The translations under genes were made by a program, and so were the position numbers. A stretch of 64,000 nucleotides of DNA from IMG/VR virus record IMGVR_UViG_3300034375_009390, one strand, 5' to 3'. This DNA comes from an uncultured virus (IMG/VR IMGVR_UViG_3300034375_009390). Taxonomy: Duplodnaviria; Heunggongvirae; Uroviricota; Caudoviricetes. The notes under the pieces are model-generated. The model worked only from the letters and a program-made list of their open reading frames with translations, searched no databases and was not told the DNA's origin. Shown here piece by piece: positions 2,399-50,933 of the stretch. How positions within the stretch are numbered: the stretch's first letter is position 1; each line of letters opens with the position of its first letter.

Positions 2399-2458
2399 AC
2401 CCTAGGAGATAGGGCATTCGAAACCTTGCTATGATCACAGAAGATAGGTTGTACTTCT

Positions 2459-3664
2459 GTGGCAGCTCGGCGGCGTCCTTCATACGGTTTTGATTTAGCC
2501 GGAACTGCTTTTGGCGTAAAGCCGGAAGTAGGTGTGTCCAGGGGTATGCTGTCGCAATTGTTCCCTGAAATAGGGATTAAAACAACCGCAACAGATACAG
2601 AACCGGAAGAGGTTGATAAGCCAGAAGAATCGTCGACAGGAGCTCGGCCGACCACAAGTGTGGGGGTCGGGGCAGATGAAGATACGCTTCCTGGGTCCAC
2701 TCTCGAAAAAATCAGTCTCAAGGGGTCCTTTTCGCTCCCAATAGGATTTAATTTTGGGGCTAGTTTTGCAGGTCCTTCAGGTCCACAGGGTAGGGGCGGA
2801 AGTCGATTAGGTTATTCCGGAAGTGTTTTAGAAGGTAAAAGTATCGAGCCAAGCAATATAAGAACTCAAGACGCTTCATATCAACCTGTAGAAGAACAAA
2901 CTAAAGCGGACAGACTATTAAGTAGTTTTATAGGAGAAATGGGGACCAGCGGAGTGGTCGGAGCAACAGCACTGGGCGGAGCCTTCGAGTACGGATACAC
3001 CCCAGAGCAGGTACTCAATAAGGCCAAGCAGGAAAATCTTACATTCGGTGAGCAAGCAGCAAAAACACTCGGGTTGAGCGAATTAACACAGTATCAAGGA
3101 CCTTTAGCCCAAGGAAAAACCATCGGCTTGGAAGCGTTAGATAAAGCTAGGTCCTCCGGTATGAGCGACACTTTAATTAAACAACTAGCTAAGCAGCAGG
3201 GTGTTGGGTTCGGTGAAAAAGCCGCAAGTCAGTTAGGTGTGGCGAAAGTAACCGATCTAGGTCAATATATTGGAGGCGTAGGTAGTAACCAGGGAACACT
3301 AGGACTTGAAGCAGTTAAGAGGGCTCGTCAAGCCGGTCTGTCTGATAGCCAGATACGCGACCTAGCAAGTCAACAGGGACTTTCCTTTGGTTCTGGGGCG
3401 GCCACGCAGCTAGGAGTTCAGTCTGCGGGGCAAAAGGCATCAGCCCAGAGGAGTTCAACGAGTGGGGGTAGTTCGTCGAAAGATCGTAGCTCCACCAACC
3501 TCAGTAAGTTTATTGGAGGTGCCGGAAGCAATCAAGGAACATTGGGACTCGAAGCAGTTAAAAGAGCGCGTCAGTCCGGGCTTTCAGATTCTCAAATTCG
3601 ACAGATGGCATCGCAACAAGGTTTAGGTTTCGGTTCAGCCGCACGTTCTGCTTTAGGGGTGTAG
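2459..3664 (+). CDS. Protein with four C-terminal ~55-aa repeats
   Basis: Repeated FIGG-GSNQGTLGLEAVKRARQ-GLSDSQIR-ASQQGL-FG unit. Confidence 0.75.
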   Translation: MAARRRPSYGFDLAGTAFGVKPEVGVSRGMLSQLFPEIGIKTTATDTEPEEVDKPEESSTGARPTTSVGVGADEDTLPGSTLEKISLKGSFSLPIGFNFGASFAGPSGPQGRGGSRLGYSGSVLEGKSIEPSNIRTQDASYQPVEEQTKADRLLSSFIGEMGTSGVVGATALGGAFEYGYTPEQVLNKAKQENLTFGEQAAKTLGLSELTQYQGPLAQGKTIGLEALDKARSSGMSDTLIKQLAKQQGVGFGEKAASQLGVAKVTDLGQYIGGVGSNQGTLGLEAVKRARQAGLSDSQIRDLASQQGLSFGSGAATQLGVQSAGQKASAQRSSTSGGSSSKDRSSTNLSKFIGGAGSNQGTLGLEAVKRARQSGLSDSQIRQMASQQGLGFGSAARSALGV

Positions 3665-3690
3665 AGTACAGACGCCTTACTTATTACAAC

Positions 3691-3879
3691 ATGGCCTCCG
3701 TAAAAACCCTTACAGCTTTTATTGGTAACAATGGCAACGAAGGCACTATCGGTTACGAAGCCCTTCTCCGCGCTCGAAAGGCTGGACTGACAGACGAGCA
3801 GATCAAACAGCAGATCCAAGCAGAGGGTCTGCACGTCGGCGAAAAAGCCAGGCACGCGCTCGGCGGTTTCGCTGCTTGA
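3691..3879 (+). CDS. Small protein consisting of one copy of the upstream repeat
   Basis: FIGNNGNEGTIGYEALLRARKAGLTDEQIKQQ...GEKARHALG aligns to the repeats of 2459..3664. Confidence 0.75.
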   Translation: MASVKTLTAFIGNNGNEGTIGYEALLRARKAGLTDEQIKQQIQAEGLHVGEKARHALGGFAA

Positions 3880-3967
3880 CACCCCTTAATGGGTTCCTGA
3901 GGGGACTTCACAACTAAATTACGAAGTTTAATCCAGAGTACAGTTAACACTGTGCTCTTTTTAATGA

Positions 3968-4507
3968 GTGTCTATGAACAAATATTCGTTACAGCTAGAA
4001 AGAGAGTCTAAAAAAATAATTCTTTCACTGCAGTCAAATGATACAGCTCACGTACAAGCACAAGCTGTGGACATTTGTAGAGCAGTTGATGCGAATAATT
4101 ATAGTATAAACTATGGGGAAGTAAATGAATCGTTACTTGCAAAGCTGTTTAAAGACCTAGCATTTAATAATTTCAACTACACACAATGCAGAGAATGGAT
4201 AGGCCCCATAACAAATAATCAACCGTGCACATATGTGCTTGGAAAACGAGTGTATATTCGAAACGCAATCCTAAAATACCTAGATATCCCAAAAGACAAC
4301 TATTATCCTAAGCCACGCTGCGGAAACGCGAAGTGTGTAAACCCACTACACTTCGAGTACAAAACAGCAAAAAGTAGTAAACTATCCCCCGGAGATATTG
4401 AAATTTTAAAAGTTCAGAAACGCGAAGGAGCAAGTGTCGAGCAAATCGCCCAAATTTTAAAAGTACACAGAGCGACAATATACAGGCACTTACAACAAGT
4501 GGCTTAA
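3968..4507 (+). CDS. Degenerate HNH/His-Cys Zn-loop protein with C-terminal HTH
   Basis: CREWIG, CGNAKCVNPLH; C-terminal SVEQIAQILKVHRATIYRHL. Confidence 0.65.
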   Translation: MSMNKYSLQLERESKKIILSLQSNDTAHVQAQAVDICRAVDANNYSINYGEVNESLLAKLFKDLAFNNFNYTQCREWIGPITNNQPCTYVLGKRVYIRNAILKYLDIPKDNYYPKPRCGNAKCVNPLHFEYKTAKSSKLSPGDIEILKVQKREGASVEQIAQILKVHRATIYRHLQQVA

Positions 4508-4583
4508 TTTAAGCCCGAGCCTGCTCTGGGCTGATACCATAGTGCAGCTCGGCTCGCGTCGGGCGCCCAACCAAACCGGAACC

Positions 4584-5228
4584 ATGAACGTTTTTGTCTT
4601 AGGACTTCGAGTCACAGCAACCGCTGCTGAAGACGACGGAACTGTAAATGTCTTAACTGAGTCTCTGCCGTCAAACGAAAAGCGTGTCGCGACTAAAGTT
4701 CAACTGATTCAAAAAGCCGATCACTACGTCGGAAAACTCCTTCAAAAGCTTGAAGAGGATCAGACCGTACTCGCAGTGGGTCCCACGCGGCCAACTCCTG
4801 ACGGTGTACTTCAGATGCAGCCTATGCTGATCGTTACGCAGGAGAACTTCGACGATCTCCTGGCTATCAACCTTTTCGTCGCTGCAGGTGGCCTCGGTCC
4901 TAAAGCTGACGAAATCGAGATTGGCGATACGACCGTAACTAATCGGTCGCTGGCTTGGCAAACCGAAAACCAGGAAACGGCGTGGTTTAAATTAGCCGGT
5001 TGGGGCGAGCTGTCAACACAATTGTCCGAGCTCGCTCCCGGAACTCCTACGATCGCTGTCGGCAAAGTCTCGACCTCAGAGAAGGACGACAAGCTTTACC
5101 TCAACTACAATCTGGACAAGGTTCTTTACCTGCCTAAGGCTTCGCGTAAAGCTCCTGTGAAAGCAGCCGACCCCGAAAAAGGGAAGGTTGCCGCTGCTGC
5201 TCTCGGTTCAATCGATTTTTCCCTCTGA
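4584..5228 (+). CDS. Single-stranded DNA-binding (OB-fold) protein
   Basis: ETAWFKLAGWGEL...GTPTIAVGKV resembles the SSB core; start placed at ATG 4584. Confidence 0.65.
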   Translation: MNVFVLGLRVTATAAEDDGTVNVLTESLPSNEKRVATKVQLIQKADHYVGKLLQKLEEDQTVLAVGPTRPTPDGVLQMQPMLIVTQENFDDLLAINLFVAAGGLGPKADEIEIGDTTVTNRSLAWQTENQETAWFKLAGWGELSTQLSELAPGTPTIAVGKVSTSEKDDKLYLNYNLDKVLYLPKASRKAPVKAADPEKGKVAAAALGSIDFSL

Positions 5229-7293: not shown

Positions 7294-7630
7294 ACTTGAG
7301 AAGTTCCAACGCGCTGTGTGCGATAGGTTAGACAAGACCAATGCAAAACTCGATCAAGTTATTGCCTTACTGGTATCAGCACAGCTCTTGGAAGAGTGCA
7401 TCTCCCCCGAAGGAGAAATCCGTGATGCCCAGCAGTGCGCGGAGATTGTTGTCGAGAGTTATTCTGCAGGTCTTTGCCTCTCCGACGAACTGACAAGCCG
7501 CACTCAAGACATTGAGTACCAAAAGTCAGAGTTTTTCGTAGACGAAGATGAGGATGAGAAAGATGAAGATGATGATAGTGATGACGATGACGGCCCCGAA
7601 GAACCTCGACTCTTTTCGATGGCGTTTTAA
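7274..7630 (+). CDS. Hypothetical protein with acidic tail
   Basis: C-terminal D/E run. Confidence 0.65.
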   Translation: MTSQSSKLEKFQRAVCDRLDKTNAKLDQVIALLVSAQLLEECISPEGEIRDAQQCAEIVVESYSAGLCLSDELTSRTQDIEYQKSEFFVDEDEDEKDEDDDSDDDDGPEEPRLFSMAF

Positions 7631-7634
7631 TAAG

Positions 7635-8228
7635 ATGAAAACACAAAATATTTTAGTAGACCAAGAAATCCTCAACTGCTTAGAAGTAGACGAGAATTTC
7701 CCAAGTGGATTAAAATGGAGTAAAAACTACAAACGGCATAAAAAAGATAGTATGTGTGGATATAAAACTAGCGACAAAAGATACTGGAGACAGAAGATAA
7801 ATGGAGTACAGTACGCTGTACATACTTTAATATGGTTGAAATTAAATAAAGAGCTAGAACCAGGTAAAACCGTAGATCACAAAGACAACAACGGGTTAAA
7901 CAATAGAATAGATAATTTAAGGTTAGCTTCAAGACTGAACCAACTACACAATAGAAAGTCTTGGAGCAGATCTAAATACAAAGGAGTAAATAAAGTAAAT
8001 AACTCTTACAGTGCTTACATTATGTATCCTGGTAAAGGTCGTATTCACTTAGGTTATTTTAATACAGCTGAACATGCGGCAATCGCACATGACATAGCTG
8101 CAAAACATATATTTCCAGAAAACCCTTTCTATAAATTAAACTTTAACCGTGGTTTTTGGTTACACGAGAGCACTATTATAAGTGAAAAAGTAATAGGTAA
8201 ACTAGAAGGTTTTTTCTCGATCCAGTAA
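7635..8228 (+). CDS. HNH-AP2 homing endonuclease
   Basis: VDHKDNNGLNNRIDNLR; SKYKGV..HLGYF.TAEHAAIAHD; AT-rich. Confidence 0.88.
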   Translation: MKTQNILVDQEILNCLEVDENFPSGLKWSKNYKRHKKDSMCGYKTSDKRYWRQKINGVQYAVHTLIWLKLNKELEPGKTVDHKDNNGLNNRIDNLRLASRLNQLHNRKSWSRSKYKGVNKVNNSYSAYIMYPGKGRIHLGYFNTAEHAAIAHDIAAKHIFPENPFYKLNFNRGFWLHESTIISEKVIGKLEGFFSIQ

Positions 8229-8257: not shown

Positions 8258-9034
8258 GTGACTAAAACACGACTAACATTAAACGGACTACGACACTACA
8301 GGTGCGATGGTGTCGATATCCCTCTTCCATCCGTAACAAGCGTTCTGTCTGCCACGCAAACAGAAGAAACTCGTAAGAAACTGGCTCATTGGAACCTGGC
8401 TAACCCTGGTGCCGCCGACATGGCAGCAGAGAGGGGTTCCTTTATCCATAACAGCGTCGAGAATCACATCAGGGGGTTGGCTGTAAGTCCGCCCCCTCAA
8501 TACGCCCCGTATTGGAAGGACGTACCTGAGAAAGTAGATGAGCTGCTGGAAGGTGGTCGTGTTCTGTGGAGCGAAAAACCATACAACAAGCCTGAGTGGC
8601 ATAAGTACGTAGGTGAAGATGGCGTCGGTCGTCTCCACTTTTACGATCCGATCAAAGCTCAGGGATACGCCGGCTGCCCGGACATCATCTACGAAGACGG
8701 GAACGGCGAACTTATCCTGGGTGACTTCAAGACGAGTAACGGTCCGTACAGCTATAAGTTCCCCAGCTCGAAAGTCCAGATGGAGGACAAACTCCGGAAG
8801 GCACTCGTGTCTGGAGTTTTTAAATTGAAGAAAACTAAGCTTCAGTTAGCTGCTTATACAATCGCAGCCGAGGCTTGCTTAGGTATCAAAATCAACAAGA
8901 CACAGATAATCGTAAGTACCGCAGTTCCTGAATTCTCTGTTCAGGTATTTACTTTCGGTCCAGACGATTTGAAAAAGGACAAACAAATGTGGTTCGAAGT
9001 CTTACGTAAGTTTTATGAGACTCGCCTTGAATAG
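8258..9034 (+). CDS. PD-(D/E)XK exonuclease
   Basis: PSVTSVL, RGSFIH, YAGCPD, DFKTS, QLAAY. Confidence 0.85.
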   Translation: MTKTRLTLNGLRHYRCDGVDIPLPSVTSVLSATQTEETRKKLAHWNLANPGAADMAAERGSFIHNSVENHIRGLAVSPPPQYAPYWKDVPEKVDELLEGGRVLWSEKPYNKPEWHKYVGEDGVGRLHFYDPIKAQGYAGCPDIIYEDGNGELILGDFKTSNGPYSYKFPSSKVQMEDKLRKALVSGVFKLKKTKLQLAAYTIAAEACLGIKINKTQIIVSTAVPEFSVQVFTFGPDDLKKDKQMWFEVLRKFYETRLE

Positions 9035-15136: not shown

Positions 15137-15160
15137 CGGCCACGCTCACTATAGCGTCAT

Positions 15161-15175
15161 TAGCCGGGGACACTA
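15161..15175. repeat. TAG-N9-CTA site downstream of a fibre module
   Basis: Minus strand atcgTAGtgtccccggCTAatga; same flanks as the array sites. Confidence 0.6.
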
Positions 15176-19936: not shown

Positions 19937-20125
19937 ATGACTGCCGCTATCGCTTTTATTCTCGCTCACTGGGTGGACATCATCGCTATTGGTGCTGCAG
20001 CGCACGCTTTAGCTCTGGTTATCGTAAATACTACTCCGTCAAAACGGGACGATATTATCTACGACCGCCTATATAAAGTAATTGAAGTTATTGCAGGGAT
20101 TATCACGAAGACTGCGAAGAAATAA
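19937..20125 (+). CDS. Holin-like small membrane protein
   Basis: Hydrophobic helices, TPSKRDD loop, basic C-terminus. Confidence 0.65.
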   Translation: MTAAIAFILAHWVDIIAIGAAAHALALVIVNTTPSKRDDIIYDRLYKVIEVIAGIITKTAKK

Positions 20126-20767
20126 CTCCGATAATTTTTACACCTGTAACGCCGAAAAAGGGGTCTTCATGGCCCCTTCTTATTCTCATGTATACAGAAT
20201 GATACTTACGATCTATAAGGGTACATAGTGTTCTCAAAGGATACTTAATTCCTTCGTACTCACACCATAGAGTGTTAGTTTTGTTTCGAGCTTGTTCATC
20301 TTTTGATGCCCATCGGCAGTTATCTGGCCAGTAACCCTTATAAGTATCAATACGTTCGAGTGTAAACTTGGGATCCGGCTTATCCCCCATATCATCATAA
20401 AAAGCTTCAAAACTATTAAGCCAACGTGGATCAGCATCGAGCTTTAAGACATTTACATAATGGTTGTATGACTTATGATTTTTATCTAAAAGTCTTCTTT
20501 TCATTTCGTACCAAGAATTCCATTCACTTGATCTAACTTTACCGTGCTTATAAGAGTGACTATTCGTACCTAAACGATAAGAATTCCCGAGGCACCCACA
20601 ATGGTCTTTGCTTCTTTTTTTAGGTTAGCGTACTCGCCTCGGGTTACAGAACCACATATACAACATTCCCAAACGTATTTATTCCTTCCATTTACGACAA
20701 CGATGTCAATAATTTTTCTGTTGTTTAAAATGTCACCTACGCGATCTGAGGGACGGAGCCTGGCCAT
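20103..20767 (-). pseudogene. HNH-type endonuclease split by a -1 frameshift
   Basis: ORFs 20570..20767 and 20103..20504 join in the -1 frame at the A7 run, giving LKKRSKDHCGC...WYEMKRR...TLERID...NCRWA. Confidence 0.75.
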
Positions 20768-21343: not shown

Positions 21344-22099
21344 GTGGCTGAAGTCAATTTTCTGGTTAAAAAAGGGCTGACTGTGCCCAAAGGCAGCGCA
21401 TCCACGCCTGCGATTATTTTCGACGCGTCCGACCCAAATACTGGTATTTATTCCCCTGCCGCAGACCAGTTAGCCATCTCGACTAATGGCACTGGGCGGT
21501 TGTTTGTTGCAAGTGATGGTAAGGTCGGTGTAGGAGGTGCTCCCAGTAACACTCTTCACGTTCAAGGTGATGTATCTGGGGGAGACTTAGTTTATTTAAA
21601 CAATACAAGCGCTGTCACTTCGGACGTACTGAGGTTAAATACTGCAGGTGCGGGAACAGGTACTTATATTATTGACGCACAATCTACAGGAACATCAAGA
21701 TTTGTTGTCAATGGCGCTGGACGGGTTGGCATAGGCACGGCAACACCGAACGCGCCTTTGTCAGTGTCTGATGGAACAACTGAAGTAATTACAAGTCCAT
21801 TCAGTAGTGTTGGTAGCTTTGGTACTAGGACCAATCATCCGTTGGCCTTAATCTCAAGCAATGTCGAACGCCTCCGCATCACATCGGACGGTAAACTAGG
21901 TCTGGGGACTAGTAGCCCTAACGCGAGTGCACTTTTAGACGTAACTAGTACCACGCTTGGATTCCTTCCTCCTCGGATGACGGAAGTACAACGAGACGCT
22001 ATTAGCTCTCCGGCTGCTGGTCTTATGATCTACAACACGACAACGAACAAACTTAACTTCTACAACGGCACTGCTTGGGAGGCAGTAACTTCTGCGTAA
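21344..22099 (+). CDS. Tail fibre protein (modular)
   Basis: VGIGT/LGLGT repeats, ERLRITSDG, GFLPPRMT..RDAI..PAAGLMIYNTT. Confidence 0.8.
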   Translation: MAEVNFLVKKGLTVPKGSASTPAIIFDASDPNTGIYSPAADQLAISTNGTGRLFVASDGKVGVGGAPSNTLHVQGDVSGGDLVYLNNTSAVTSDVLRLNTAGAGTGTYIIDAQSTGTSRFVVNGAGRVGIGTATPNAPLSVSDGTTEVITSPFSSVGSFGTRTNHPLALISSNVERLRITSDGKLGLGTSSPNASALLDVTSTTLGFLPPRMTEVQRDAISSPAAGLMIYNTTTNKLNFYNGTAWEAVTSA

Positions 22100-24581: not shown

Positions 24582-24665
24582 GCGTGCAAAAGGGTCTTAC
24601 TAAGTGCGGCCCAACTCTAGCAACTTCAAACTTGAATCAAATTAGAAGTTGGTTAGTTGATCTCA

Positions 24666-24875
24666 CTACTGGGCTTCGCCGGAGAGGTCAGAGGATTCAA
24701 GCGGGAAGTTAAACAACTTTTCAATACGTTTGATTTCCAGTTCAAACTGGCTGACCATCTCGAACGTAAAGCAGTCGTCGTAATCTGCTGCTAGATAGCC
24801 AAGTTCAACGCGGCTGATTTCCTTAAGCTTTTCAAGGATGAAGCGACGCAAGGCTTGTTTAGTTTTGTATTTCAT
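24666..24875 (-). CDS. Cassette ORF, hypothetical
   Basis: Starts at CTA-ATG of one site, stops at TAG of the next. Confidence 0.7.
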   Translation of the reverse strand: MKYKTKQALRRFILEKLKEISRVELGYLAADYDDCFTFEMVSQFELEIKRIEKLFNFPLESSDLSGEAQ

Positions 24876-24887
24876 TAGTGATGATGA

Positions 24888-25103
24888 CTACTGGGCTTCA
24901 AGCTCGTCGGCGAGGGTGAGGAGTTCACCCATTGCGGCTTCCCACCCATCGCCGAATAGTTCGGGCACAAACGGACCAGGGTTTAATTGAGCAGCAGCTC
25001 TCAGAGCGGCGGCAAGCTTCTCGCCGTAGTCAACAAAGACACCGGCTTCATCCTCGTTGAAGGCTTCCCAGATGGTTTGCGCTTGTGGTGAAAGTTCAGG
25101 CAT
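24888..25103 (-). CDS. Cassette ORF (LSPxAQ family)
   Basis: MPELSPQAQTIW..LAAALRAAA..LADELE; paralogue of 26203..26451. Confidence 0.7.
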   Translation of the reverse strand: MPELSPQAQTIWEAFNEDEAGVFVDYGEKLAAALRAAAQLNPGPFVPELFGDGWEAAMGELLTLADELEAQ

Positions 25104-25150
25104 TGAAGTCAGATTCACTAAGAGAGGCGGAGAATGTTTTGCGGCTTTGG

Positions 25151-25315
25151 TTATTTGATCATTTTCTTTTTGATCCTGCCGCATACGGTGCAACGAAGAG
25201 TATACCGAGTGTAGGGGCCACCCCAGAAATCACCTTGATAGTGGCCTTCAATTTCGTCGATAATCTCCCAGTTATGGACATGACCTACAAGTAGACGCTG
25301 AAGAAAATCAAGCAT
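25151..25315 (-). CDS. Cassette ORF, 54-aa putative Zn-binding protein (not in track)
   Basis: MLDFLQRLLVGHVHNW...RCTVCGRIKK. Confidence 0.6.
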   Translation of the reverse strand: MLDFLQRLLVGHVHNWEIIDEIEGHYQGDFWGGPYTRYTLRCTVCGRIKKKMIK

Positions 25316-25357
25316 GATGAGGGTGATCAGTGAAGGTAACTACGAGGTCTAGCTGGA

Positions 25358-25627
25358 TTAACTGAGCCGTCCATACGGTTTGTCATCGCTGAGTTCATCA
25401 GCGTCAACAGTCTCGATGTCTCGCCATTCGCCTCCGCGCTGGGACCAGCCTTGTGTCCAGGTGAAGTATCCCTGTAGCTTTAGATGAGTCTGTCCGTCTT
25501 CGGTATGAAATCGGACTAAGCGATAGGCGTCAGGAATCCCTTTGGCGATCTTGGCGGCGGCAATAGTGAGGGCGGGAAGATCAGTTGGAACCACGAGGAT
25601 CGGCTGATTGCTTGTGTTTTCGGTCAT
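25358..25627 (-). CDS. Cassette ORF, hypothetical
   Basis: 89 aa between sites. Confidence 0.7.
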   Translation of the reverse strand: MTENTSNQPILVVPTDLPALTIAAAKIAKGIPDAYRLVRFHTEDGQTHLKLQGYFTWTQGWSQRGGEWRDIETVDADELSDDKPYGRLS

Positions 25628-25647
25628 GGCTTGATTAGAGGAAGCGA

Positions 25648-25920
25648 CTACTTGTCCTCTGTTAGTGGCGCTGTGTTTGCAATTTCGATGAGATCTTCGC
25701 GGGTGAAGTGTCCATCGAGTGTGATCTCTCCGAAGTCTTCCACTATGTAGTTTCCCGCATGTTTGGGCATGTTGTTACAGTCCTGAACGGTGAGACTCGG
25801 CTCGGGCTGAGCGAGGAGAGCCTCAGCCCTGTCAATCAGCAGACCTCCGCCGTTAGGCGCCAAGCTCTTTATGGTCGCCAGCAGATCGGCGATCAGCTCT
25901 CGGGTGGTTGGATCAGTCAT
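25648..25920 (-). CDS. Cassette ORF, hypothetical
   Basis: 90 aa; ALLAQPEP shared with its neighbour. Confidence 0.7.
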   Translation of the reverse strand: MTDPTTRELIADLLATIKSLAPNGGGLLIDRAEALLAQPEPSLTVQDCNNMPKHAGNYIVEDFGEITLDGHFTREDLIEIANTAPLTEDK

Positions 25921-25940
25921 GAGGTGATTAGAGGTAATGA

Positions 25941-26195
25941 CTACTTGCCCCAGCGGGCGAGGACGGCGCGAAGACCCCTGAGCGTTACCTCGTCGGTATC
26001 GCCTCCTTCAGCCAGTGATGCTTCGTAGAACGCAAACAGCAGCTCCTCATCCGTCGGCACCTCCGGCTCGGGCTGGGCCAGGGCGGCATCTGCCTTCATG
26101 TAGGCGCAGATCAGATGGCGGTTGATGATGTGCTCCTTGCAGTTTGATTCGATAGCAGTGACTAATTGACGGCAGAGTGTTTTCCAGCCAGTCAT
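25941..26195 (-). CDS. Cassette ORF, hypothetical
   Basis: MTGWKTLC..ALAQPEPEVPTDEEL..RAVLARWG. Confidence 0.7.
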   Translation of the reverse strand: MTGWKTLCRQLVTAIESNCKEHIINRHLICAYMKADAALAQPEPEVPTDEELLFAFYEASLAEGGDTDEVTLRGLRAVLARWGK

Positions 26196-26202
26196 GGTGT
26201 GA

Positions 26203-26451
26203 TTAGTGGGTTCCACTACTGGGCTGGTCTTCACCACGCAGCTCGGCGGCAATGGCGAGTATTTCAGAGCGGATCTGTTCGCATTGGGTGATGCAGCAAT
26301 CGTTTCCACACGGATCAGCCGGCACTACCTGATCTGCCAGCGCCTCAATGGAGGCGGCAAGGGCTGGGAGATCCGCAGGGGTTTCGTTTATCTTTGAGTG
26401 GTCAAGATATGCAACCCAAATAGCTTGAGCAGCGGGCGATAGATCAGTCAT
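26203..26451 (-). CDS. Cassette ORF (LSPxAQ family)
   Basis: MTDLSPAAQAIW..ALADQVVP..ILAIAAEL. Confidence 0.7.
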   Translation of the reverse strand: MTDLSPAAQAIWVAYLDHSKINETPADLPALAASIEALADQVVPADPCGNDCCITQCEQIRSEILAIAAELRGEDQPSSGTH

Positions 26452-26705
26452 TAGGGTTCCTCACTACTGGGTGCTGAGTGCTTAGCCATTAAGGCCAGCA
26501 CTTGAGTCCGAAGATCAAGAAGCCTGCTTGAACATCGGTCAAAGTTCTCTGCTGCTCTTTCGGCAGCGTCAGCAATTTCTGCCTTAGTGGTGTAGCCGTC
26601 AGATAAAAGCTGGTCAAAATCATTTTGAACGTACCCCTTAAGACCATCAACATCAAGGGAAAGGCTTTTGATTGCGTCGAAGATTTCTTTTTGTTGGTCA
26701 GCCAT
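26451..26705 (-). CDS. Cassette ORF, coiled-coil
   Basis: 84 aa between sites. Confidence 0.7.
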   Translation of the reverse strand: MADQQKEIFDAIKSLSLDVDGLKGYVQNDFDQLLSDGYTTKAEIADAAERAAENFDRCSSRLLDLRTQVLALMAKHSAPSSEEP

Positions 26706-26719
26706 TGAAGTCGGAATCT

Positions 26720-27097
26720 CTACGAGGGGTCGGGAAGTTGTTCAAGGGCGCGGCGGATGGTGTCGTACTTGGCGCGAACAGCGGCATTCGTGTCCACGCC
26801 ATTGATGATGCAGGGTTCAATCTGGATCTCGCGCATCACTTCCAGCGCCTGCTCCTTCAAGCTCAGCGGCTTCGGGCGGCGGGCGGCGCGGAGCCTACCC
26901 GGCATAAGCCACCCATCTCCTCGATCTGAGCGGTTGTTGGGTACGTGCAGCCACTCACAGCACGCCTTCAGCTCAGTGTCTGCACCCCATTGAGCGGCGA
27001 GCGTAATGATTTGCTCGATACTCCAGCCAATCTTCTCTAACTGGAGCCAGTTGTGGATTTTGTCCGGCGGTGGGGCGATGGGATGTTGTTGTGTCAT
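26720..27097 (-). CDS. Cassette ORF, hypothetical
   Basis: MTQQHPIAPPP..AAQWGAD.EL.ACCEW..SLKEQAL. Confidence 0.7.
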   Translation of the reverse strand: MTQQHPIAPPPDKIHNWLQLEKIGWSIEQIITLAAQWGADTELKACCEWLHVPNNRSDRGDGWLMPGRLRAARRPKPLSLKEQALEVMREIQIEPCIINGVDTNAAVRAKYDTIRRALEQLPDPS

Positions 27098-27120
27098 TGG
27101 AAGGTGATTAGAGCAAGTCA

Positions 27121-27315
27121 CTAAGCGGTGTGCTGTTTTAGAAACTCAAGCATCAACCGATGCGCTTCGCCAGCATCAGCGATGAACTCGCCTTTGTAGT
27201 GAAAGCCTGCTTTGTCAATGCGTATGACTTCTTCCGTCTGTTCTCGCAGGACGATGCAGCTACCTGCGTTTGGATCCTCGACCCTAGTGATCTGGGGCGT
27301 GTAATCTTTTGTCAT
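27121..27315 (-). CDS. First cassette ORF, hypothetical
   Basis: 64 aa; GGAGG upstream. Confidence 0.7.
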   Translation of the reverse strand: MTKDYTPQITRVEDPNAGSCIVLREQTEEVIRIDKAGFHYKGEFIADAGEAHRLMLEFLKQHTA

Positions 27316-27481: not shown

Positions 27482-28681
27482 TTAGGTGTAAACGATCTTC
27501 AGGTCACCAGTGGAGGTGCGGTACACATCTCCATCAACAAGGCCGCCAGTTTTTGCGGCAGCGTTATCAGCATAGACGGGAGCGTTAGAGAAATTGATTA
27601 CCCGCGTATTCTTGATACGCATCGCTTCGGTTGGTGATGACGCCCCATCCGCAGTAACGGAGAACACTAGGCGTCCTGGGTAGTCACCGGATCCCGGCGT
27701 AGAATCAGCATAGGCTTCGATGCGTGCATAATCTCCACCGTCTTTATCTGTAAACAGAAAAGCTCCTATTTTGTCGGCATTTGACATAGAAGTGGATGAT
27801 TCACCTCTTTTAAGGGCAAATATTCCCTCGTTTGTGGGAACAGTAGCGTACCCTTGAACTTGCAAAAGCGCGTATTGCGCTGTGCTTGTGCTAGCGCTCG
27901 TAGACGTGCCAACTAAGAGCCTGCCGGAGCTGTCGATGCGGGCGCGTTCATTAGAAGCAGTGCTAAAAACGATCTTGCCTCCGCCTCTACTGGCATTAAT
28001 GGCTATTCCATTTGCTGTAGACGCCTCATTTGTTGTACCTATTGTTCCGGCACCGTTTCCATCCGATGAGAGTAGATCAACCGCAGTACCTGCACTAGCC
28101 TCTGCAATTGTTAAGCGCCCACCAGGACTCGTAGTGCCTATACCTACATTGCCTGAGGAGTCAATCCTCATTCTTTCACTGTTCGTAGTGGCATTATTTG
28201 TATAGAAACCTAAATAACCATCTACGCCAGCAACATCAGGTCGAGCACCAACAATTGACGCACTTGCAACAGAAGATCCATTTGGAATAAAATCAATAGC
28301 TGGTCCGTCGTCCGCAACCGTTCCCGCTGCCACAAGGGTGAGAACAGTTGTTTTACCGGAGACTGTACTTTCTGCAATATGGAGTTTTGAACCAGGATTA
28401 CTAGTCCCCAGACCTAGACGTCCGCTGGAATCAATACGCAGCCGCTCACTACCGCCGGTCGCAAACGCCAGAGTATTAGTTGTCGGTCTGAATAAACCAA
28501 CATCCGTATCATTCAGGAAGCGGACTGCGGGGGTTCCTGCCGATCCGTCCGGAATAAGAAACAGATTTTGCTGTTGAATCTTCTTATTCGGCGTTGTCGG
28601 GTCGCTTACATCGACCAGTACAAAAGTATCGTTCGAGGCCACGCCGGTCCCGATATCACTCAGAGCACTGATCTTTGTCAT
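27482..28681 (-). CDS. Tail fibre protein (modular)
   Basis: MTKISAL N-domain; three ER.RIDSSG repeats; YPGRLVFS..ADG..SPTEAMRI. Confidence 0.85.
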   Translation of the reverse strand: MTKISALSDIGTGVASNDTFVLVDVSDPTTPNKKIQQQNLFLIPDGSAGTPAVRFLNDTDVGLFRPTTNTLAFATGGSERLRIDSSGRLGLGTSNPGSKLHIAESTVSGKTTVLTLVAAGTVADDGPAIDFIPNGSSVASASIVGARPDVAGVDGYLGFYTNNATTNSERMRIDSSGNVGIGTTSPGGRLTIAEASAGTAVDLLSSDGNGAGTIGTTNEASTANGIAINASRGGGKIVFSTASNERARIDSSGRLLVGTSTSASTSTAQYALLQVQGYATVPTNEGIFALKRGESSTSMSNADKIGAFLFTDKDGGDYARIEAYADSTPGSGDYPGRLVFSVTADGASSPTEAMRIKNTRVINFSNAPVYADNAAAKTGGLVDGDVYRTSTGDLKIVYT

Positions 28682-32933: not shown

Positions 32934-33545
32934 CTAAAAACGATGCGGTGCACAGTGGAAGCAGTCACAGTCTAGTTTATCCAAATCTGGCAATTCTCGT
33001 CCTAATTTGTCCCAACCAAGTTCAATCCATTTACCTCGAACAGTGCGGGCGGCTTCGATTTTGCAGACATAACAACCTAAATATTCCAGTCTGCCTTTAT
33101 GCCCAACCCCCGCCTGCCATTTTTCTACTTTTTTGTTCCAAATAACACCCGTTACGCCGCTAACGCTAGATCGAAACACTGATCTGTTTACACTTTGAAT
33201 ACTGCCATCTATGTCTAATCTTAAGTTGGACGCGTTGTTATCCAACCAATTTCTATTTATATGATCGATCTGACCATCGGAGGGATCTACACCAAAAGTC
33301 ATATAATAAATTAATCGAGATGCGGCGTACTTAACGCCATCAACTTTAACCATCCAGTCGCCCCTATCAGGTGTGCGATGAGAGAAAAGCTTATATCCCG
33401 CCACGCTGGCGGCTTTGGCTCCTCCTTTACGATCTACTTTCCAAACTAAACCCGACCACTGTCCGTACTTATCTGGTGGAATTTCAACGACTTCCAGCAG
33501 CTCATTCAACCGCTCAAGCGGCGGCAGGGGCTTATACTTAGGCAT
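32934..33545 (-). CDS. HNH-AP2-like homing endonuclease
   Basis: IDHINRNWLDNNASNLR; SGVTGVIW; YLGCY..KIEAA. Confidence 0.85.
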   Translation of the reverse strand: MPKYKPLPPLERLNELLEVVEIPPDKYGQWSGLVWKVDRKGGAKAASVAGYKLFSHRTPDRGDWMVKVDGVKYAASRLIYYMTFGVDPSDGQIDHINRNWLDNNASNLRLDIDGSIQSVNRSVFRSSVSGVTGVIWNKKVEKWQAGVGHKGRLEYLGCYVCKIEAARTVRGKWIELGWDKLGRELPDLDKLDCDCFHCAPHRF

Positions 33546-33612
33546 CGGCCTGGTTGTGCAGGTTGATCGCGCCTCGGGGTGTTGTCGCACCGCCGAGGCT
33601 TCAAACTATAGC

Positions 33613-37735: not shown

Positions 37736-37899
37736 CAGAAGTGAAACCCCGCCTCCTTACTTTCCACTCTAGCTGAAACACCCTATTTTACGTCCGGTAG
37801 CTTACAAAGCTAGAAAGATCCCGTGCTAAATTTCGACAATTAAAAGCCCCAGCGGTGCGGCAACACCCCAGGGCACGATCAACCTGTAGCACCAGGCCG

Positions 37900-38487
37900 A
37901 TGACTAAGCATAATCCTTTGCCGCCTCTTGAGCGGTTAAACGAACTGTTCGAAGTTGTATCAATCCATCCTTCTCAGTTTGGAATTCAATCCGGCTTGAT
38001 ACGAAAAATAAGTCGAGGTGGTCAGAAAGTAGGAAGTATAGGAGGGCACTTGGGTACACACTCTGTAGCAAAAAACAGGTTAGATTGGTCAATAAAAATA
38101 GACGGAAAACTCTACTACGTCTCGCGAATAATATATTACATGGTAAATAAAATAGATCCAGCAGAGATTGAGGTAGATCATCAGGATCAAAACTCTTTAA
38201 ACAATAATGCAGACAATCTTCAGCTGGGAACTAGACTAGCGCAGTGCACAAATAGAGGAATATTTTCAAGTAATAGTAGCGGACTTATTGGCGTTAGTTG
38301 GTATAAGAGAACTAAAAAATGGAGAGTTAATCTTATGCACAAAGGAGTTAACGTTTTAAATAGTTACTTTACTTGCAAACTTGAAGCAGCTAATACATAT
38401 AATAATAAAGTAATAGAATTAGGTCTAGATAAAATGGGTAAAACTTTAAACAACTTAAATGATATAAAATGCGATTGCTGTAAGTAA
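37900..38487 (+). CDS. HNH-AP2-like homing endonuclease
   Basis: VDHQDQNSLNNNADNL; SGLIGVSW; paralogue of 32934..33545. Confidence 0.85.
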   Translation: MTKHNPLPPLERLNELFEVVSIHPSQFGIQSGLIRKISRGGQKVGSIGGHLGTHSVAKNRLDWSIKIDGKLYYVSRIIYYMVNKIDPAEIEVDHQDQNSLNNNADNLQLGTRLAQCTNRGIFSSNSSGLIGVSWYKRTKKWRVNLMHKGVNVLNSYFTCKLEAANTYNNKVIELGLDKMGKTLNNLNDIKCDCCK

Positions 38488-45127: not shown

Positions 45128-45667
45128 ATGACATTCTCTGGTTCTTTTGAATCCACGCCGGCTTCTGAGCTTGTTCCCTCGGAAACAACCGTCGTTGTTC
45201 AAGAACTGGAGGAGCGGAGGGTCACGTTGGAGGATCTGTTGATTCAACTCGTGGCCCTTTCGTCACATTTACACCAGATCTACACCCAAGCACACTTAAT
45301 TCACTTAAATATCGAAGGTCCTCTCTTCCTTCCACTGCATAAATTCCTCAAAAAACAGTACTTCGCGCACATTGATCAGTTTGATCAGGTAACTGAGTTC
45401 GTCCGCACGATGGACACACTCATGCCGATGTGCGAAAAGGGTCTTCTAGGTGCTTATAAGGGCTTTAAACACGTAAAATCATATGAAGCTCGCGAAATGC
45501 TGATCACTTACCTGCAAAACCTGGAGAAAATTGGTATGCAGGCTAAGGAAATCGGTGAACTGGCCCGAGAAATCAAAGCTCCGGACGTAGAAAACTACAT
45601 GGCGGAGATTGTAGGTCAGATGTTTAAAGCCTCCTGGAAGATTAAAGCTTCCCTGAGGTCCTCTTAA
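45128..45667 (+). CDS. dps: Dps/ferritin-like protein
   Basis: HLIHLNIEGPLFLPLHKFL..QY...IDQFDQVTE. Confidence 0.8.
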   Translation: MTFSGSFESTPASELVPSETTVVVQELEERRVTLEDLLIQLVALSSHLHQIYTQAHLIHLNIEGPLFLPLHKFLKKQYFAHIDQFDQVTEFVRTMDTLMPMCEKGLLGAYKGFKHVKSYEAREMLITYLQNLEKIGMQAKEIGELAREIKAPDVENYMAEIVGQMFKASWKIKASLRSS

Positions 45668-46112
45668 ATTTTTGTCCGGGGATTACCTTTTGCATAACAG
45701 CGTCATAATGAGACCAACCCAGATTTAAACGTCGAGAAATAGTAGTGTGACTGATACCAATTTCTAAAGACCATTCTTTAATTGTTTGACACTTACCGTT
45801 AATAGTTAAATAAACACACATTGATCGATTTCTATTTTGCTCCGTACGCGTTGCCCATTTGCAATTCTCTGGACAATAATTTCCATTAATATCAATCCGC
45901 TCTATAGAGTACTCTTTACCAGGACGTTCTCCCATATCCATTAAAAAATTTTCAAACGTATTCCATCGATCACAAACCCGGATACCTCTTGCCCCGTAAT
46001 TAGAGTAACCGTTTGCTTTCGGGTTGTTACAACGAGATCTCATATTATGCCAACTAGAGTGAGTTAAAGAACGAACTCCATTGATCGAATGTCCGTGACG
46101 TTTTAAAACCAC
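45642..46112 (-). CDS. HNH-type homing endonuclease
   Basis: WHNMRSRC, YGARGI.VC.RW, SIERID.NGNYCPENCKWAT; GTG start inferred; TGcTATACT upstream. Confidence 0.85.
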   Translation of the reverse strand: MVLKRHGHSINGVRSLTHSSWHNMRSRCNNPKANGYSNYGARGIRVCDRWNTFENFLMDMGERPGKEYSIERIDINGNYCPENCKWATRTEQNRNRSMCVYLTINGKCQTIKEWSLEIGISHTTISRRLNLGWSHYDAVMQKVIPGQKFKRTSGKL

Positions 46113-46158
46113 TGTTAACGTTGTAGGAGTAACCAGTATAGCAGGCCACACTTCGCGG

Positions 46159-46743
46159 CTAAACCTGAGCCCATCCGGCAGCTGTGTAAATATAAAGTCC
46201 ACTAGGAGCTGCTGTTTGATAAAACAGTGTCCCCTGTTGAGCGGATCCCGGCAAGGCTGCGTCAATAGCCGCGACGGGGATACCCGTGGCGATTACCGTG
46301 CCACTCGAAAGCAAACTACCCGAGGACAGGATCGCGGTCGAAGAAGTCTGAGCGAAAGTACCGCTCGCGAAGATAGCGCCGGACGCGAGTAGAGCCGTAC
46401 TCGCTTGAGTCGCAAACGCGGCAGAATCAGCGTAACCGGCTCCGATTTTTACCCACGCTGAACCGGTCCAGACGTTTAAGTAAGAATTGGGGCTGCTGCT
46501 ATCCGTCCAAAGCTCGCCAACAGAGTTGCCGGGAATACCTGCAGGGGTCGAGTTTGGTGCAGTTGTGCCGTAATGCGCAGGTCCAATCTTTCGGATATTG
46601 CCTGCTGTGTCTTCAAAGTACAGACCCGGATCAACAGCACCCCGAGAGATTGCAAGTTCTCCGCCTTGTACAACAACACCGCTGGGTCGGTCAGACGACA
46701 GGCCGGAGCGCTTGAGAAGTAAAATAGAAGGAGTAGATGTCAT
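46159..46743 (-). CDS. Tail fibre-like protein
   Basis: ILLLKRSG..RP..GELAI N-domain; GELWTD. Confidence 0.65.
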   Translation of the reverse strand: MTSTPSILLLKRSGLSSDRPSGVVVQGGELAISRGAVDPGLYFEDTAGNIRKIGPAHYGTTAPNSTPAGIPGNSVGELWTDSSSPNSYLNVWTGSAWVKIGAGYADSAAFATQASTALLASGAIFASGTFAQTSSTAILSSGSLLSSGTVIATGIPVAAIDAALPGSAQQGTLFYQTAAPSGLYIYTAAGWAQV

Positions 46744-49265: not shown

Positions 49266-50933
49266 TCAGCGGTACATGTTGACAGGAGGCTGCCCGATGT
49301 AAGCAGCAGATCGAGGAGCCATAAACTGACGAAGATCAGCGCTGCCTTGGAAGTTACCCATGGGATCTTCCACCCCCATCTTCATCGAACCTTCTACAAG
49401 TTTATTAACGTTCGAACCGGCCTCGGATGTAATTTCGGTCTGCTTCATAACCGGCATTTGTTGGCTAGGCATTGTCCGCCTCTGCTCCATCAGGCGGTAG
49501 GCCAGCACGGGATTAGCCTTAGCCCAGCGCTCAAAAGCGACATCGCTTTCGATGCCTACGGAGCCGGGTGCCCCAGTACCACGTAGACCGGCTAAGGTCT
49601 GCTCGATCTGACCAGGCGATGTAGCAGCGGCGCGTTCCACTGCGTACATGCCACGGGCTCCGGAACCTAATCGACCGGCACCTTGTGCTTGAGCGTTAGC
49701 GGCAGCCTGACGGTAGTTCGACTCCCCGTCATTAGTCCGGATGACTACTTGACCGCCGCCGACCATGCCGGGTTGAGGCATAGAACGCATAGCGGGCTCC
49801 AGAGCTTCAGGAGCCGGAGGATTGGCGGTATTCGGGAGATCGGGAGTAGCGAGAGGAGTGGGGAGCTGAGCAGCGGGGTCGCCACCAGTAACAGCGGGAA
49901 TCTTCGCGCCGGCTTCAGGACTAGCCGTGGTCGGACCTAGGGGAGATTCAGCCGTAAGCTGAGATTCCTCCTGTCCAAGCATATTAAGGGCTGCTCCAAG
50001 ACCACCAATACCGGCTAAACCGGCAGCAGCTTTATAGAGATTGGAGAGATCCGCTTGACGGGTGCCTCCCACGGCGTTCCGAGAACCCATCGCTGTAACC
50101 GCGTCACTACCCATAAGAGGACGACTTGCGAGAGAGGATAAAGCGGACTCCTGAGTTGGAGTCATCGCACCGCCCCGGGTGATATCTTCGATTCGGACCC
50201 GTTCGATGATCGGGTCGGTCACCTCACCGCCAGGGGAACGAGTCATTGAACCGGGGACTTCTCCGCCCATACGAGCAAGAGCACCGGGGCGACCGCTAGA
50301 CCCACCCTTAGTCATTGCGGAAGAACCCTGACGGACCAGTGCACCCGGTTCGCCGTATTCCAAAGCCCGTAAGTAATCGATGCCCCGAGGGCCGACAAGA
50401 TTGTCAAAAATCTCAGATGTAGGAATTCCGTAAGCGTCGCTAGCTTTATTGGAGATGTCCAGAATCGAACGGTAGGTCCCTGGGTCTGTCTCCAAAAGGC
50501 GTTGAGCTGCTTCTGACTGAGGTACCCACGCAGGAACAGGAGCCTCAGGAGAACTGGTAGCTAAAGCACCTGAACGACCGGTAATGGTGGTGCCGGGAGT
50601 GGAAAGAGCTTCCCGGATGGGAAGAGGCATCTGACCGGGAGCCTGGGGAACACCCGGCCCACGGCGAGGGCCAACCGGAGTTACTTCCGGAGCCTGAGGG
50701 TATTGCGAACGACGAGGAACAGAGCCTGCAGGAACTTCGCGGGGGCCGGGAAGCTGCCGTTGAAAACGCCCGGTGACAGGATTCGGGGGAACATTAATGC
50801 GGGGTTGGACGGGAGTCGGACCACCTTTTTTCACAAAAGATTCAAAAAAGGCGCGGACCACGGGTTCAAGCGTTTGCAACTCGCGCACGCCTTGACGCCC
50901 GGCCCCTACTAGTTCTCCTAAAAGCCCAGCCAT
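49266..50933 (-). CDS. P/G/A-rich low-complexity protein (internal virion?)
   Basis: 555 aa, largely disorder-like. Confidence 0.7.
   Translation of the reverse strand: MAGLLGELVGAGRQGVRELQTLEPVVRAFFESFVKKGGPTPVQPRINVPPNPVTGRFQRQLPGPREVPAGSVPRRSQYPQAPEVTPVGPRRGPGVPQAPGQMPLPIREALSTPGTTITGRSGALATSSPEAPVPAWVPQSEAAQRLLETDPGTYRSILDISNKASDAYGIPTSEIFDNLVGPRGIDYLRALEYGEPGALVRQGSSAMTKGGSSGRPGALARMGGEVPGSMTRSPGGEVTDPIIERVRIEDITRGGAMTPTQESALSSLASRPLMGSDAVTAMGSRNAVGGTRQADLSNLYKAAAGLAGIGGLGAALNMLGQEESQLTAESPLGPTTASPEAGAKIPAVTGGDPAAQLPTPLATPDLPNTANPPAPEALEPAMRSMPQPGMVGGGQVVIRTNDGESNYRQAAANAQAQGAGRLGSGARGMYAVERAAATSPGQIEQTLAGLRGTGAPGSVGIESDVAFERWAKANPVLAYRLMEQRRTMPSQQMPVMKQTEITSEAGSNVNKLVEGSMKMGVEDPMGNFQGSADLRQFMAPRSAAYIGQPPVNMYR

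Follow-up and report, generated by a model that had tools for sequence, protein, structure and literature searches.

Codon-locked boxes at the module joints of a phage tail-fibre gene as likely points of in-frame recombination

A phage's range of cyanobacterial hosts is set by its tail fibres, and exchange of parts in host-recognition proteins has been described for several systems. Site-specific inversion switches the C-termini of fibres or pilins in the Gin/gix system of Mu, in Cin of P1, in Min of p15B and in the Rci/sfx shufflon of R64; the sites lie in frame inside the host-recognition gene, joining alternative C-terminal parts takes no reverse transcriptase, and these systems depend on a dedicated recombinase, on a fixed crossover core and on inverted sites in one genome. 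Diversity-generating retroelements (DGRs) of phage fibres, of the BPP-1 Mtd type, direct diversification to a receptor-binding protein, and need a reverse transcriptase and a template/variable repeat pair. For T-even fibre genes, recombination between conserved motifs was reportedly described by Tetart et al. in 1998, as cited by Trojet et al. in 2011. The subject here is a tail-fibre gene found in a stretch of 64,000 nucleotides (hereafter the window) from an uncultured virus of the Caudoviricetes, IMG/VR record IMGVR_UViG_3300034375_009390. The closest described counterparts are the distal tail-fibre and adhesin genes of T-even phages, where recombination occurs between conserved motifs, those of gp37 and the glycine-rich ones of gp38, according to the accessible text of Trojet et al. 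2011 (PMC3157838). In the mosaic adhesive trimer (MAT) fibres of Bdellovibrio (8ond, 8oml, 8ojn), C-terminal tips are exchanged between proteins that are otherwise 75% identical (Caulton et al. 2024, PMC10769870, available part). Extracts of two further papers treat the swapping of fibre fragments between phages as general knowledge (PMC1079782) and report phylogenetic incongruence of cyanopodovirus fibre genes (PMC4646655). The principle of fibre exchange at conserved motifs is already established for T-even phages.

An earlier note on this DNA had described four in-frame copies of one site, TAG-N9-CTA (TAG-N9-TTA in the last), in the fibre gene. These sites fall in four different conserved boxes (B, C, A and D; Table 1), and in-frame homologous recombination at boxes of identical DNA is probably the best explanation of them. 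By its sequence, the fibre seems to work like gp37 and gp38 but is not a member of those families, and no homology to them was found with Pfam and NCBIfam, its PHROG families being those of cyanophage fibres. As in the T-even genes, so far as the accessible text of PMC3157838 describes them, short conserved motifs part hypervariable segments of a host-recognition protein, chimeras appear to come from exchange within or near the motifs, and the gene pool would form a library of interchangeable parts. Unlike the T-even genes, the fibre has several box types in a set order at the joints of its shaft modules, and these boxes are sharply bounded, locked at silent sites, and common to podo-, sipho- and larger cyanophages and to hundreds of metagenome contigs; box exchange in cyanophage fibres is, moreover, suggested by sequence comparison. 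It also differs from the inversion and shufflon systems, with no recombinase among the open reading frames (ORFs) of the window, four direct sites of four sequences, variable breakpoints, and alternative modules located in other phages rather than in this genome. Unlike in a DGR, its variation consists in the replacement of whole modules, not in adenine-directed point changes. A literature search, including the available parts of PMC4646655 and PMC1079782, yielded no account of cyanophage fibre boxes that are locked at silent sites.

The window comes from a phage genome and carries genes for DNA polymerase, primase, thymidylate synthase, endolysin, terminase, portal, major head protein and several HNH endonucleases. 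The fibre matches the tail-fibre families phrog_18345 (E 3.5e-43) and phrog_9942 (E 1.4e-37) and shares about 33% amino-acid identity with annotated tail fibres of Synechococcus podoviruses (S-CBP1, S-CBP4, S-H1 and others; tblastn). A homologue was found by tblastn in 65 phage records, each below 60% amino-acid identity, while a Pfam and NCBIfam search of the fibre and its neighbours found no family. Three internal repeats, M1 (amino acids 79-168), M2 (169-244) and M3 (245-344), each start with the motif ER.RI.S.G....GT, and score against each other with z = 11.1 (M1 and M2), 6.0 (M1 and M3) and 3.1 (M2 and M3). The nearest solved structures by sequence are the MAT fibres (8ond, E 4.5e-10), which have a SERMRI-SG-G.GT repeat in common with the fibre; in MAT this repeat is located in trimeric beta-helix shaft domains, as the available part of PMC10769870 describes, and its placement at domain starts rests on an alignment with Bd2133 and on the domain limits given there. 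The similarity, including the repeated ER.RI.S.G..G.GT motif, places the protein in the family of cyanophage tail fibres and MAT-like fibres, and the fibre is modular and probably trimeric. The MAT fibres are bacterial surface proteins, unlike a virion fibre, and locking of a motif at the nucleotide level is not mentioned in the accessible part of that article. In a 20-sequence alignment with a mean column identity of 24%, the nearly invariant columns cluster at amino acids 245-260 and 335-358. The nearest record, G001, has no fibre and no coverage of window positions 20-34 kb, and comparison rests on more distant relatives, namely 22 viral-contig loci gathered by protein similarity; 60 motif instances were counted in 23 distinct fibre ORFs.

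Table 1. Features of the window and silent-site comparison of the fibre gene (same codon at positions of identical amino acid, fibre of the window against 21 relatives).
Feature	Coordinates	Strand	Same codon	Expected	Remarks
Tail-fibre gene	27482..28681	minus			399-amino-acid ORF: N-terminal part, three repeat modules, C-terminal part
N-terminal region, amino acids 1-76	28454..28681	minus			85-88% nucleotide identity with two viral contigs, then lost
Box B, amino acids 79-96, ERLRIDSSGRLGLGTSNP	28394..28447	minus	80/213 = 0.38	0.27	contains site 1; short nucleotide matches with relatives
Site 1, TAG-N9-CTA	28402-28416	minus (coding)			L89 G L G T S94
Box C, amino acids 169-186, ERMRIDSSGNVGIGTTSP	28124..28177	minus	101/207 = 0.49	0.31	contains site 2; 86-89% nucleotide matches over 31-45 nucleotides, L007/L016/L017/L008
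Site 2, TAG-N9-CTA	28132-28146	minus (coding)			V179 G I G T T184
Box A, amino acids 245-260, ERARIDSSGRLLVGTS	27902..27949	minus	255/317 = 0.80	0.28	strongest codon lock; site 3 (27901-27915) is its 3' end
Site 3, TAG-N9-CTA	27901-27915	minus (coding)			L256 V G T S T261
Box D, amino acids 333-356, GDYPGRLVFSVTADGASSPTEAMR	27614..27685	minus	276/429 = 0.64	0.31	contains site 4; 88-89% nucleotide match with S-H1
Site 4, one-mismatch TAG-N9-TTA	27655-27669	minus (coding)			L338 V F S V T343
C-terminal common module, amino acids 335-399	27485..27679	minus			89-94% nucleotide identity, 7 distinct viral-contig fibres
C-terminal part (silent-site comparison)			355/567 = 0.63	0.36	
Three between-box segments			0.31-0.36	0.30-0.34	
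Array junction linker	24654-27123; also 15159-15175, 49731-49747	minus (24654-27123)			[C/A]AG-TAG-T...CTAAT, then ATGAC directly or after 6-11 bases
Second fibre-like gene	21344..22099	plus			251 amino acids; PHROG tail fibre E 1.7e-24; 28% amino-acid identity with main fibre
N-box of second fibre gene	21471-21503	plus			
Box B of second fibre gene	21865-21919	plus			
Five HNH endonuclease genes	7548-8228, 20103-20504, 32934-33590, 37855-38487, 45642-46265				two PHROG families; one gene adjoins the structural cluster

On the coding strand, the coordinates of the four sites, their common frame and their spacings of 270, 231 and 246 nucleotides, all multiples of 3, are as the earlier note gave them; in every site the T of TAG is the second base of a codon (xTA-Gxx...xCT-Axx). 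Three exact sites were seen in the fibre where 0.34 were expected from 20,000 synonymous re-spellings with the codon usage of the window (P=0.0037), and four against 0.46 expected for the relaxed C/T form (P=0.0004), a pattern picked post hoc. This excess, together with a spelling shared by relatives, bears out the statement that the protein does not dictate these codons. In the whole window TAG-N9-CTA occurs 21 times, compared with 11.4 +/- 3.0 in shuffles, and 21 was reached by 1 of 100 shuffles. The idea of one site written four times had to be given up. Sites 1 and 2 are homologous (LGLGTS and VGIGTT); site 3 (LVGTST) is out of register by one codon, because LGLGTS and VGIGTT align to the residues LLVGTS; and site 4 belongs to another motif, GRLVFSVT.

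What is conserved, as far as these comparisons go, is the whole box of about 48 nucleotides and not TAG...CTA. Each box type has its own fixed spelling (A, RLLVGTS; B, LGLGTS; C, VGIGTT; D, GRLVFS.TADGASSPTE; and an N-box, ADQVAISTNGTGRLFVD). The excess of NTA and of ACT and TCT codons at the positions pointed out in the earlier note does exist: the Leu/Val codon is NTA in 26 of 32 boxes of B/C type and in 24 of 28 of A type, for a background of 23-28%, and ACT was found in 25/30 and TCT in 23/25. Other codons of the boxes are likewise locked (AGG 21/26, ACG 25/26, GTT 23/27), and the silent letters that form TAG and CTA are kept no better than the remaining silent letters of the same boxes. 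Beyond the window, the complete TAG-N9-CTA was counted in 32 of 55 boxes; by type, it was scored in 15/26 A, 6/13 B, 12/16 C and 2/20 D boxes, counted with separate patterns whose totals differ from 55. TAG-N9-CTA thus reads as a by-product of the frozen spelling (xTA-Gxx ... xCT-Axx), not as a recombinase site, and as unrelated to the junction motif of the adjacent small-gene array. Descent from one duplicated motif and frozen spelling can account for the skeleton in all boxes. When the box types are laid in TAG register, TAG...CTA is all that they have in common (TTA in most D boxes), and box A is then one codon off the protein register.

For the silent-site comparison of Table 1, the duplicate ORFs L005, L014 and L024 were dropped. 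Even at near-invariant residues between boxes (G306, A319, I321, T328), the codon is kept in 2 to 6 of 19-20 relatives. Since codons have drifted at between-box residues and are kept in the boxes, the variable modules are anciently diverged homologues, and the boxes look either young or constrained as DNA. The motifs do appear to be conserved as DNA, with an identity adequate for homologous pairing. Elsewhere the motif is spelt otherwise: NTA is used in 0 of 4 copies in roseophage CRP-7, and the cyanomyovirus Sf-CH8 has TTG, ATG, TTG and ATA, while in an AT-rich pelagiphage GTA was found in 3 of 3 motif copies. The fibre itself does not need the spelling, because CRP-7, Sf-CH8 and relatives such as L015, L016 and L004 spell the motif differently.

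The boxes are widely spread. With the 9 kb around the fibre as query, megablast gave only patches of 48-57 nucleotides; they match fibre genes of S-CBP4, S-CBP42 and S-H1 (88-94% identity) and coincide exactly with sites 3 and 4. Among four fibres that share about 33% protein identity, nearly every codon of ERARIDSSGRLLVGTS is common, including the order of two serine codon families. Box A is a lone island of about 50 nucleotides, 86-98% identical with nearly all relatives; fibre genes of 9 named phages (17 records) contain it at 86-97.5% identity, and it is common to phages of different families. More than 123 IMG/VR stretches contain its exact 36-nucleotide core, with two positions left free. 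Among the matches listed, box A ends sharply at 48 nucleotides in 69 unique contexts: in the four codons upstream of the searched core, which lie outside the search pattern, the third-base frequency (0.80-0.94) equals the amino-acid frequency, and one codon beyond the box conservation drops to about 0.5.

The same picture was obtained from four freshwater metagenome runs, by summing the depth of contigs aligned at a likeness of at least 90%. Depth reached 676-4685 in the bin of box A (27870-27983) against 0-11 in the adjoining bins, 458-1513 in that of box C (28098-28154) against 3-11 alongside, 192-421 in that of box D (27642-27698) against 0-43, and 52-112 in that of box B (28383-28439) against 1.6-15. 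These spikes, of up to several hundred-fold, stand exactly at the four boxes, and many metagenome contigs match box A alone and diverge on both sides. Between 27300 and 29000, Logan contigs of runs X1, X3, X6 and X10, in which this phage is present, break at box A, into pieces 27627-27929 and 27924-28610. A hybrid box, made of the 5' half of box A (27923-27949) and the 3' half of box B (28402-28416) with 4 other letters between them, was present in 4 of 4 freshwater runs, and the hybrid peptide ERARIDSSGRLGLGTS occurs in contig L017.

Comparison of relatives reveals what look like natural chimeras, with exchange points in or beside the motifs, in assembled contigs. The C-terminal 65 residues of the fibre share 89-94% nucleotide identity with L004/5, L006, L007, L009, L013/14, L016 and L017, whereas the preceding modules are unmatched at the DNA level; by blastn these tracts start at ORF nucleotides 1006-1016, the TAG of site 4 being at 1016. 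L018 and L023 are 100% identical over 420 nucleotides from the middle of box A and unrelated upstream. L018 and L025 are 99.8% identical over nucleotides 1-474, up to a point within the N-box, and identity comes back at box A, at 97%; the middle segments measure 201 and 705 nucleotides, an in-frame difference of 504, and the variants inside box A are linked to the respective neighbouring modules. More broadly, both flanks of box A are less than 60% identical in 2330 of 2346 pairs, taken from the 69 contexts among the matches listed. A flank is shared at 90% or more in 7 context pairs, 6 of which share one flank only, and in these one-sided pairs identity stops 0-1 nucleotide past the box or 3-14 nucleotides upstream of the 36-nucleotide core, that is, inside the box or 2 nucleotides beyond its 5' edge. 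In three examples the switch points lie in mid box, at TAG, and at least 12 nucleotides upstream of TAG, exact crossovers being unresolvable where the parents are identical. Among the internal ends of long tracts, 24 of 52 fall within 10 nucleotides of a box when 18% would be expected, with the reservation that the ends are not independent and that some boxes were missed by the patterns. The string of boxes itself varies among 23 fibres (N-A-D, B-C-A-D, N-B-C-B-C-A-D-A-D, for instance). The prediction that identity between relatives would switch at the boxes holding the sites is borne out by L018/L023, L018/L025, the 6 of 7 one-sided flank pairs and the C-terminal tract. Of the cassette proposal of the earlier note, one part stands: the fibre is a chain of in-frame modules whose number and order vary among relatives. 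Insertion or excision at a fixed site fits less well than homologous exchange, breakpoint offsets being variable and no site-specific recombinase having been found in the 64-kb window.

We propose the following mechanism. The sites are the 3' parts of four boxes (B, C, A and D, of about 48-70 nucleotides) that open or close shaft modules, and a large aquatic phage pool writes each box with the same codons, silent positions included. Otherwise unrelated fibre genes thus hold stretches of identical DNA in one and the same reading phase, which would make in-frame joining by homologous recombination possible, and a crossover inside a box between two fibre genes would join modules of different phages in frame. 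The partners could meet in co-infection, or one of them could be phage DNA residing in the host. An internal module would be replaced if crossovers took place in two boxes, boxes of the same type that pair out of register would change the number of modules, by duplication or loss, and the modules would stay in order because successive joints use differing box types (B, C, A, D). We infer that the exchange is homologous, that the spelling is kept by repeated exchange (conversion), by selection for compatibility with the module pool, or by both, and that some catalyst acts. Homologous exchange fits better than an enzyme acting at a fixed point because the breakpoint offsets within boxes vary, within the limits of resolution; repeated exchange fits better than a requirement of the fibre because the spelling of the motif is not universal and the variants inside a box are linked to the flanking modules.

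Several observations weigh against this interpretation. The clean examples of breakpoints were taken from metagenome assemblies, whose contigs can be mis-joined at a common 48-nucleotide repeat; cultured-phage genomes have the same boxes with unrelated flanks. No single Logan contig of the four runs crosses box A of the fibre of the window to confirm linkage there; likewise, no listed contig covers the entire fibre gene, and module-number variants within one population are not visible in the metagenome contigs. The N-terminal 52-76 residues are 85-88% identical to those of two other contigs (L011, 84.6% over ORF nucleotides 3-229; L015, 88.5% over nucleotides 1-157; blastn), and divergence then sets in upstream of box B, these tracts ending at amino acids 52 and 76, not in a box. 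Tract ends lie farther from boxes in 28 of 52 cases, and conserved boxes, by construction, attract the ends of tracts of high identity. Boxes B and C of the window are weakly locked (0.38 and 0.49). Finally, no recombination protein was recognised in the 64-kb window with PHROGs and Pfam, except a putative exonuclease (8258-9034).

It may be asked whether anything special has to be explained. The boxes could simply be the slowest-evolving parts of recently related genes, with TAG...CTA resulting from codon bias and ancestry and the variable parts having diverged fast. Their peptide motif is indeed the most conserved one, its instances, being homologous, are not independent draws, and the peptide pattern [LV][GV]xxT[ST] of B, C and D fixes 5 of the 7 letters concerned. 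We hold this to be unlikely all the same, as codons are random at conserved residues between boxes when 64-80% are kept in boxes, the flanks of the same box are unalignable in 2330/2346 pairs, the box is common to phages of different families, and gradual divergence cannot leave 100% identity and unrelated sequence only a few bases apart. Alternatively, the frozen spelling may serve another function of the nucleic acid, for instance to pause translation so that the trimer folds co-translationally, to form an mRNA element or to bind a protein, recombination being a passive consequence of the identity of the boxes. Silent-site conservation far above expectation would be accounted for in this way, as would the less-used codons among the locked ones (TTA, CTA, GTA, AGG), and the presence of xTA-G...xCT-A in all four box types is unexplained by recombination alone. 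Yet the motif is spelt otherwise in CRP-7, Sf-CH8 and relatives such as L015, L016 and L004, and the box A haplotypes are linked to neighbouring modules, which is expected of exchange and not of selection acting site by site; we therefore regard such a function as distinctly unlikely. An RNA element in particular was looked for and rejected: folding of the box RNA was no better than in shuffles (z +0.98, -1.87, +0.58, -0.72), and no Rfam match reached a gathering score, the sole hits (E 0.13-0.91) being well under it.

The remaining alternative takes TAG-N9-CTA for a single site-specific recombination site of both array and fibre, at which a dedicated enzyme would insert, excise and swap cassettes. 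The array junctions, three fibre boxes and box B of a second fibre gene do all have the six-letter skeleton, with the same spacing of 9 nucleotides; it is commoner in the fibre than synonymous chance allows, identity switches in the boxes that hold it, and five HNH endonuclease genes lie within the window. We consider this reading very improbable, since the motif of the array is TAGT-N8-CTAAT with its flanks, and fibre sites score at most 8 bits with its matrix; the repeat families of the junctions include no fibre box; the skeleton is absent from 23 of 55 boxes of relatives and from 18 of 20 D boxes, and its silent letters are not better kept than others; register and motif vary between the sites; S-CBP4 and S-CBP42, with 0 array motifs, and S-H1, with 1, have the same spelling; breakpoint offsets vary; and no integrase, resolvase catalytic domain or transposase was found (61 ORFs with PHROGs, 62 with Pfam). 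It is similarly far-fetched, in our opinion, that the skeleton xTA-G...xCT-A is the recognition core of a phage nuclease, for example an HNH endonuclease of the window, which would nick or cut DNA at module joints and gene junctions and so steer recombination to in-frame seams; if it were, fibre modules and accessory genes would undergo a targeted diversification free of reverse transcriptase. On homologous exchange at the boxes, which we prefer, a different meaning follows. If freshwater and marine cyanophages of different families keep common, DNA-identical, in-frame joints, host-recognition modules would form a shared library, and this would explain the fibre phylogenetic incongruence in cyanopodoviruses mentioned in the available part of PMC4646655. 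The box joints offer a testable handle on the speed of host-range shifts in natural waters, and metagenome assemblies of such fibre genes may break or be mis-joined at the boxes.

The small-gene array next to the fibre deserves separate description, as the earlier note had taken the fibre sites to be the site of this array. Its motif TAGT-N8-CTAAT occurs 8 times in the window for 0.51 expected, a count reached by 0 of 100 shuffles; all copies sit on the minus strand, and the fibre holds none of them. Variants were found at 24654-24668 (CTAAC) and ~25328-25342 (CTGAT). Two reading frames are used across the linker: the gene upstream mostly ends at TAG, whereas in genes 26451-26705 and 26203-26451 AGT-AGT is read as Ser-Ser and the stop is the TAA of CTAAT. 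Among IMG/VR contigs with the linker, L157 and L159 have another downstream gene and L158 has unrelated genes on both sides; flanks that differ in this way make the linker, too, look like a mosaic boundary, one with a sequence of its own. A weight matrix built from 9 junctions gave 24-35 bits in the array and no fibre site above 8 bits on either strand. For the columns outside the core, junctions left out one at a time scored +1 to +16.5, with one at -3.1, and the three exact fibre sites -9.8, -20.0 and -23.1 on the coding strand, as chance TAG-N9-CTA matches do. A repeat finder sorted the junctions into families, with no fibre box among them. Matrix, motif and repeat families all speak against a site common to array and fibre. 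No link was found between the periodicities, the array spacings of 222-760 nucleotides being small-gene lengths and those of the fibre (231-270 nucleotides) protein-module lengths; nor is the spelling tied to the array, in view of the counts given above for S-CBP4, S-CBP42 and S-H1. The TAG-N9-CTA spacing that linker and boxes have in common may be chance, the pattern having been found by searching for it.

Other leads around these motifs were dropped. An enrichment of TAGT-N8-CTAAT in the fetched fibre loci (31 in 267 kb) comes from antisense boxes D/C, or from box A followed by an Asn codon, and is not junction-like. The best match of the junction matrix outside junctions (16.3 bits, 21471-21485, plus strand) falls in the N-box QLAISTNG of the second fibre gene and is probably due to chance, shuffles giving 3-5 hits above 8 bits. 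A role of junctions and boxes as promoters or terminators was not retained, with counts equal to those of shuffles. A DGR was set aside as well, with no reverse transcriptase in the ORFs of the window and no template repeat.

The ORF scans for enzymes of rearrangement were made with PHROGs on 61 ORFs of at least 100 amino acids and with Pfam on 62 ORFs, in a genome that extends beyond the window. In neither scan did an integrase, resolvase catalytic domain, transposase or reverse transcriptase turn up, and the earlier statement that no reverse transcriptase is involved agrees with this; helix-turn-helix domains and HNH endonucleases were found by the same scans. The HNH endonucleases of the window are possibly homing endonucleases.

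The second fibre-like gene, on the opposite strand, has a TAG-N9-CTA at 21897-21911 with the same 18-19 letters as site 1, and its box B is 93-95% identical at the nucleotide level to S-CBP4, L007, L016 and L023. Between 20 and 34 kb, the only repeat of the fibre found elsewhere is a 24-nucleotide inverted copy of box B (92%; 21896-21919 and 28394-28417), the two copies lying 6.5 kb apart and flanking the small-gene array. Recombination between these inverted copies would flip the segment and exchange the two C-terminal parts in frame, and no sign of its occurrence was seen. An invertase was considered and rejected: none was found, and conservation of the box explains the inverted pair. The C-terminal 50 amino acids of the second fibre (...GFLPPRMT...NFYNGTAW) match phrog_1325, a family of unassigned function, and form a tip unlike that of the main fibre.

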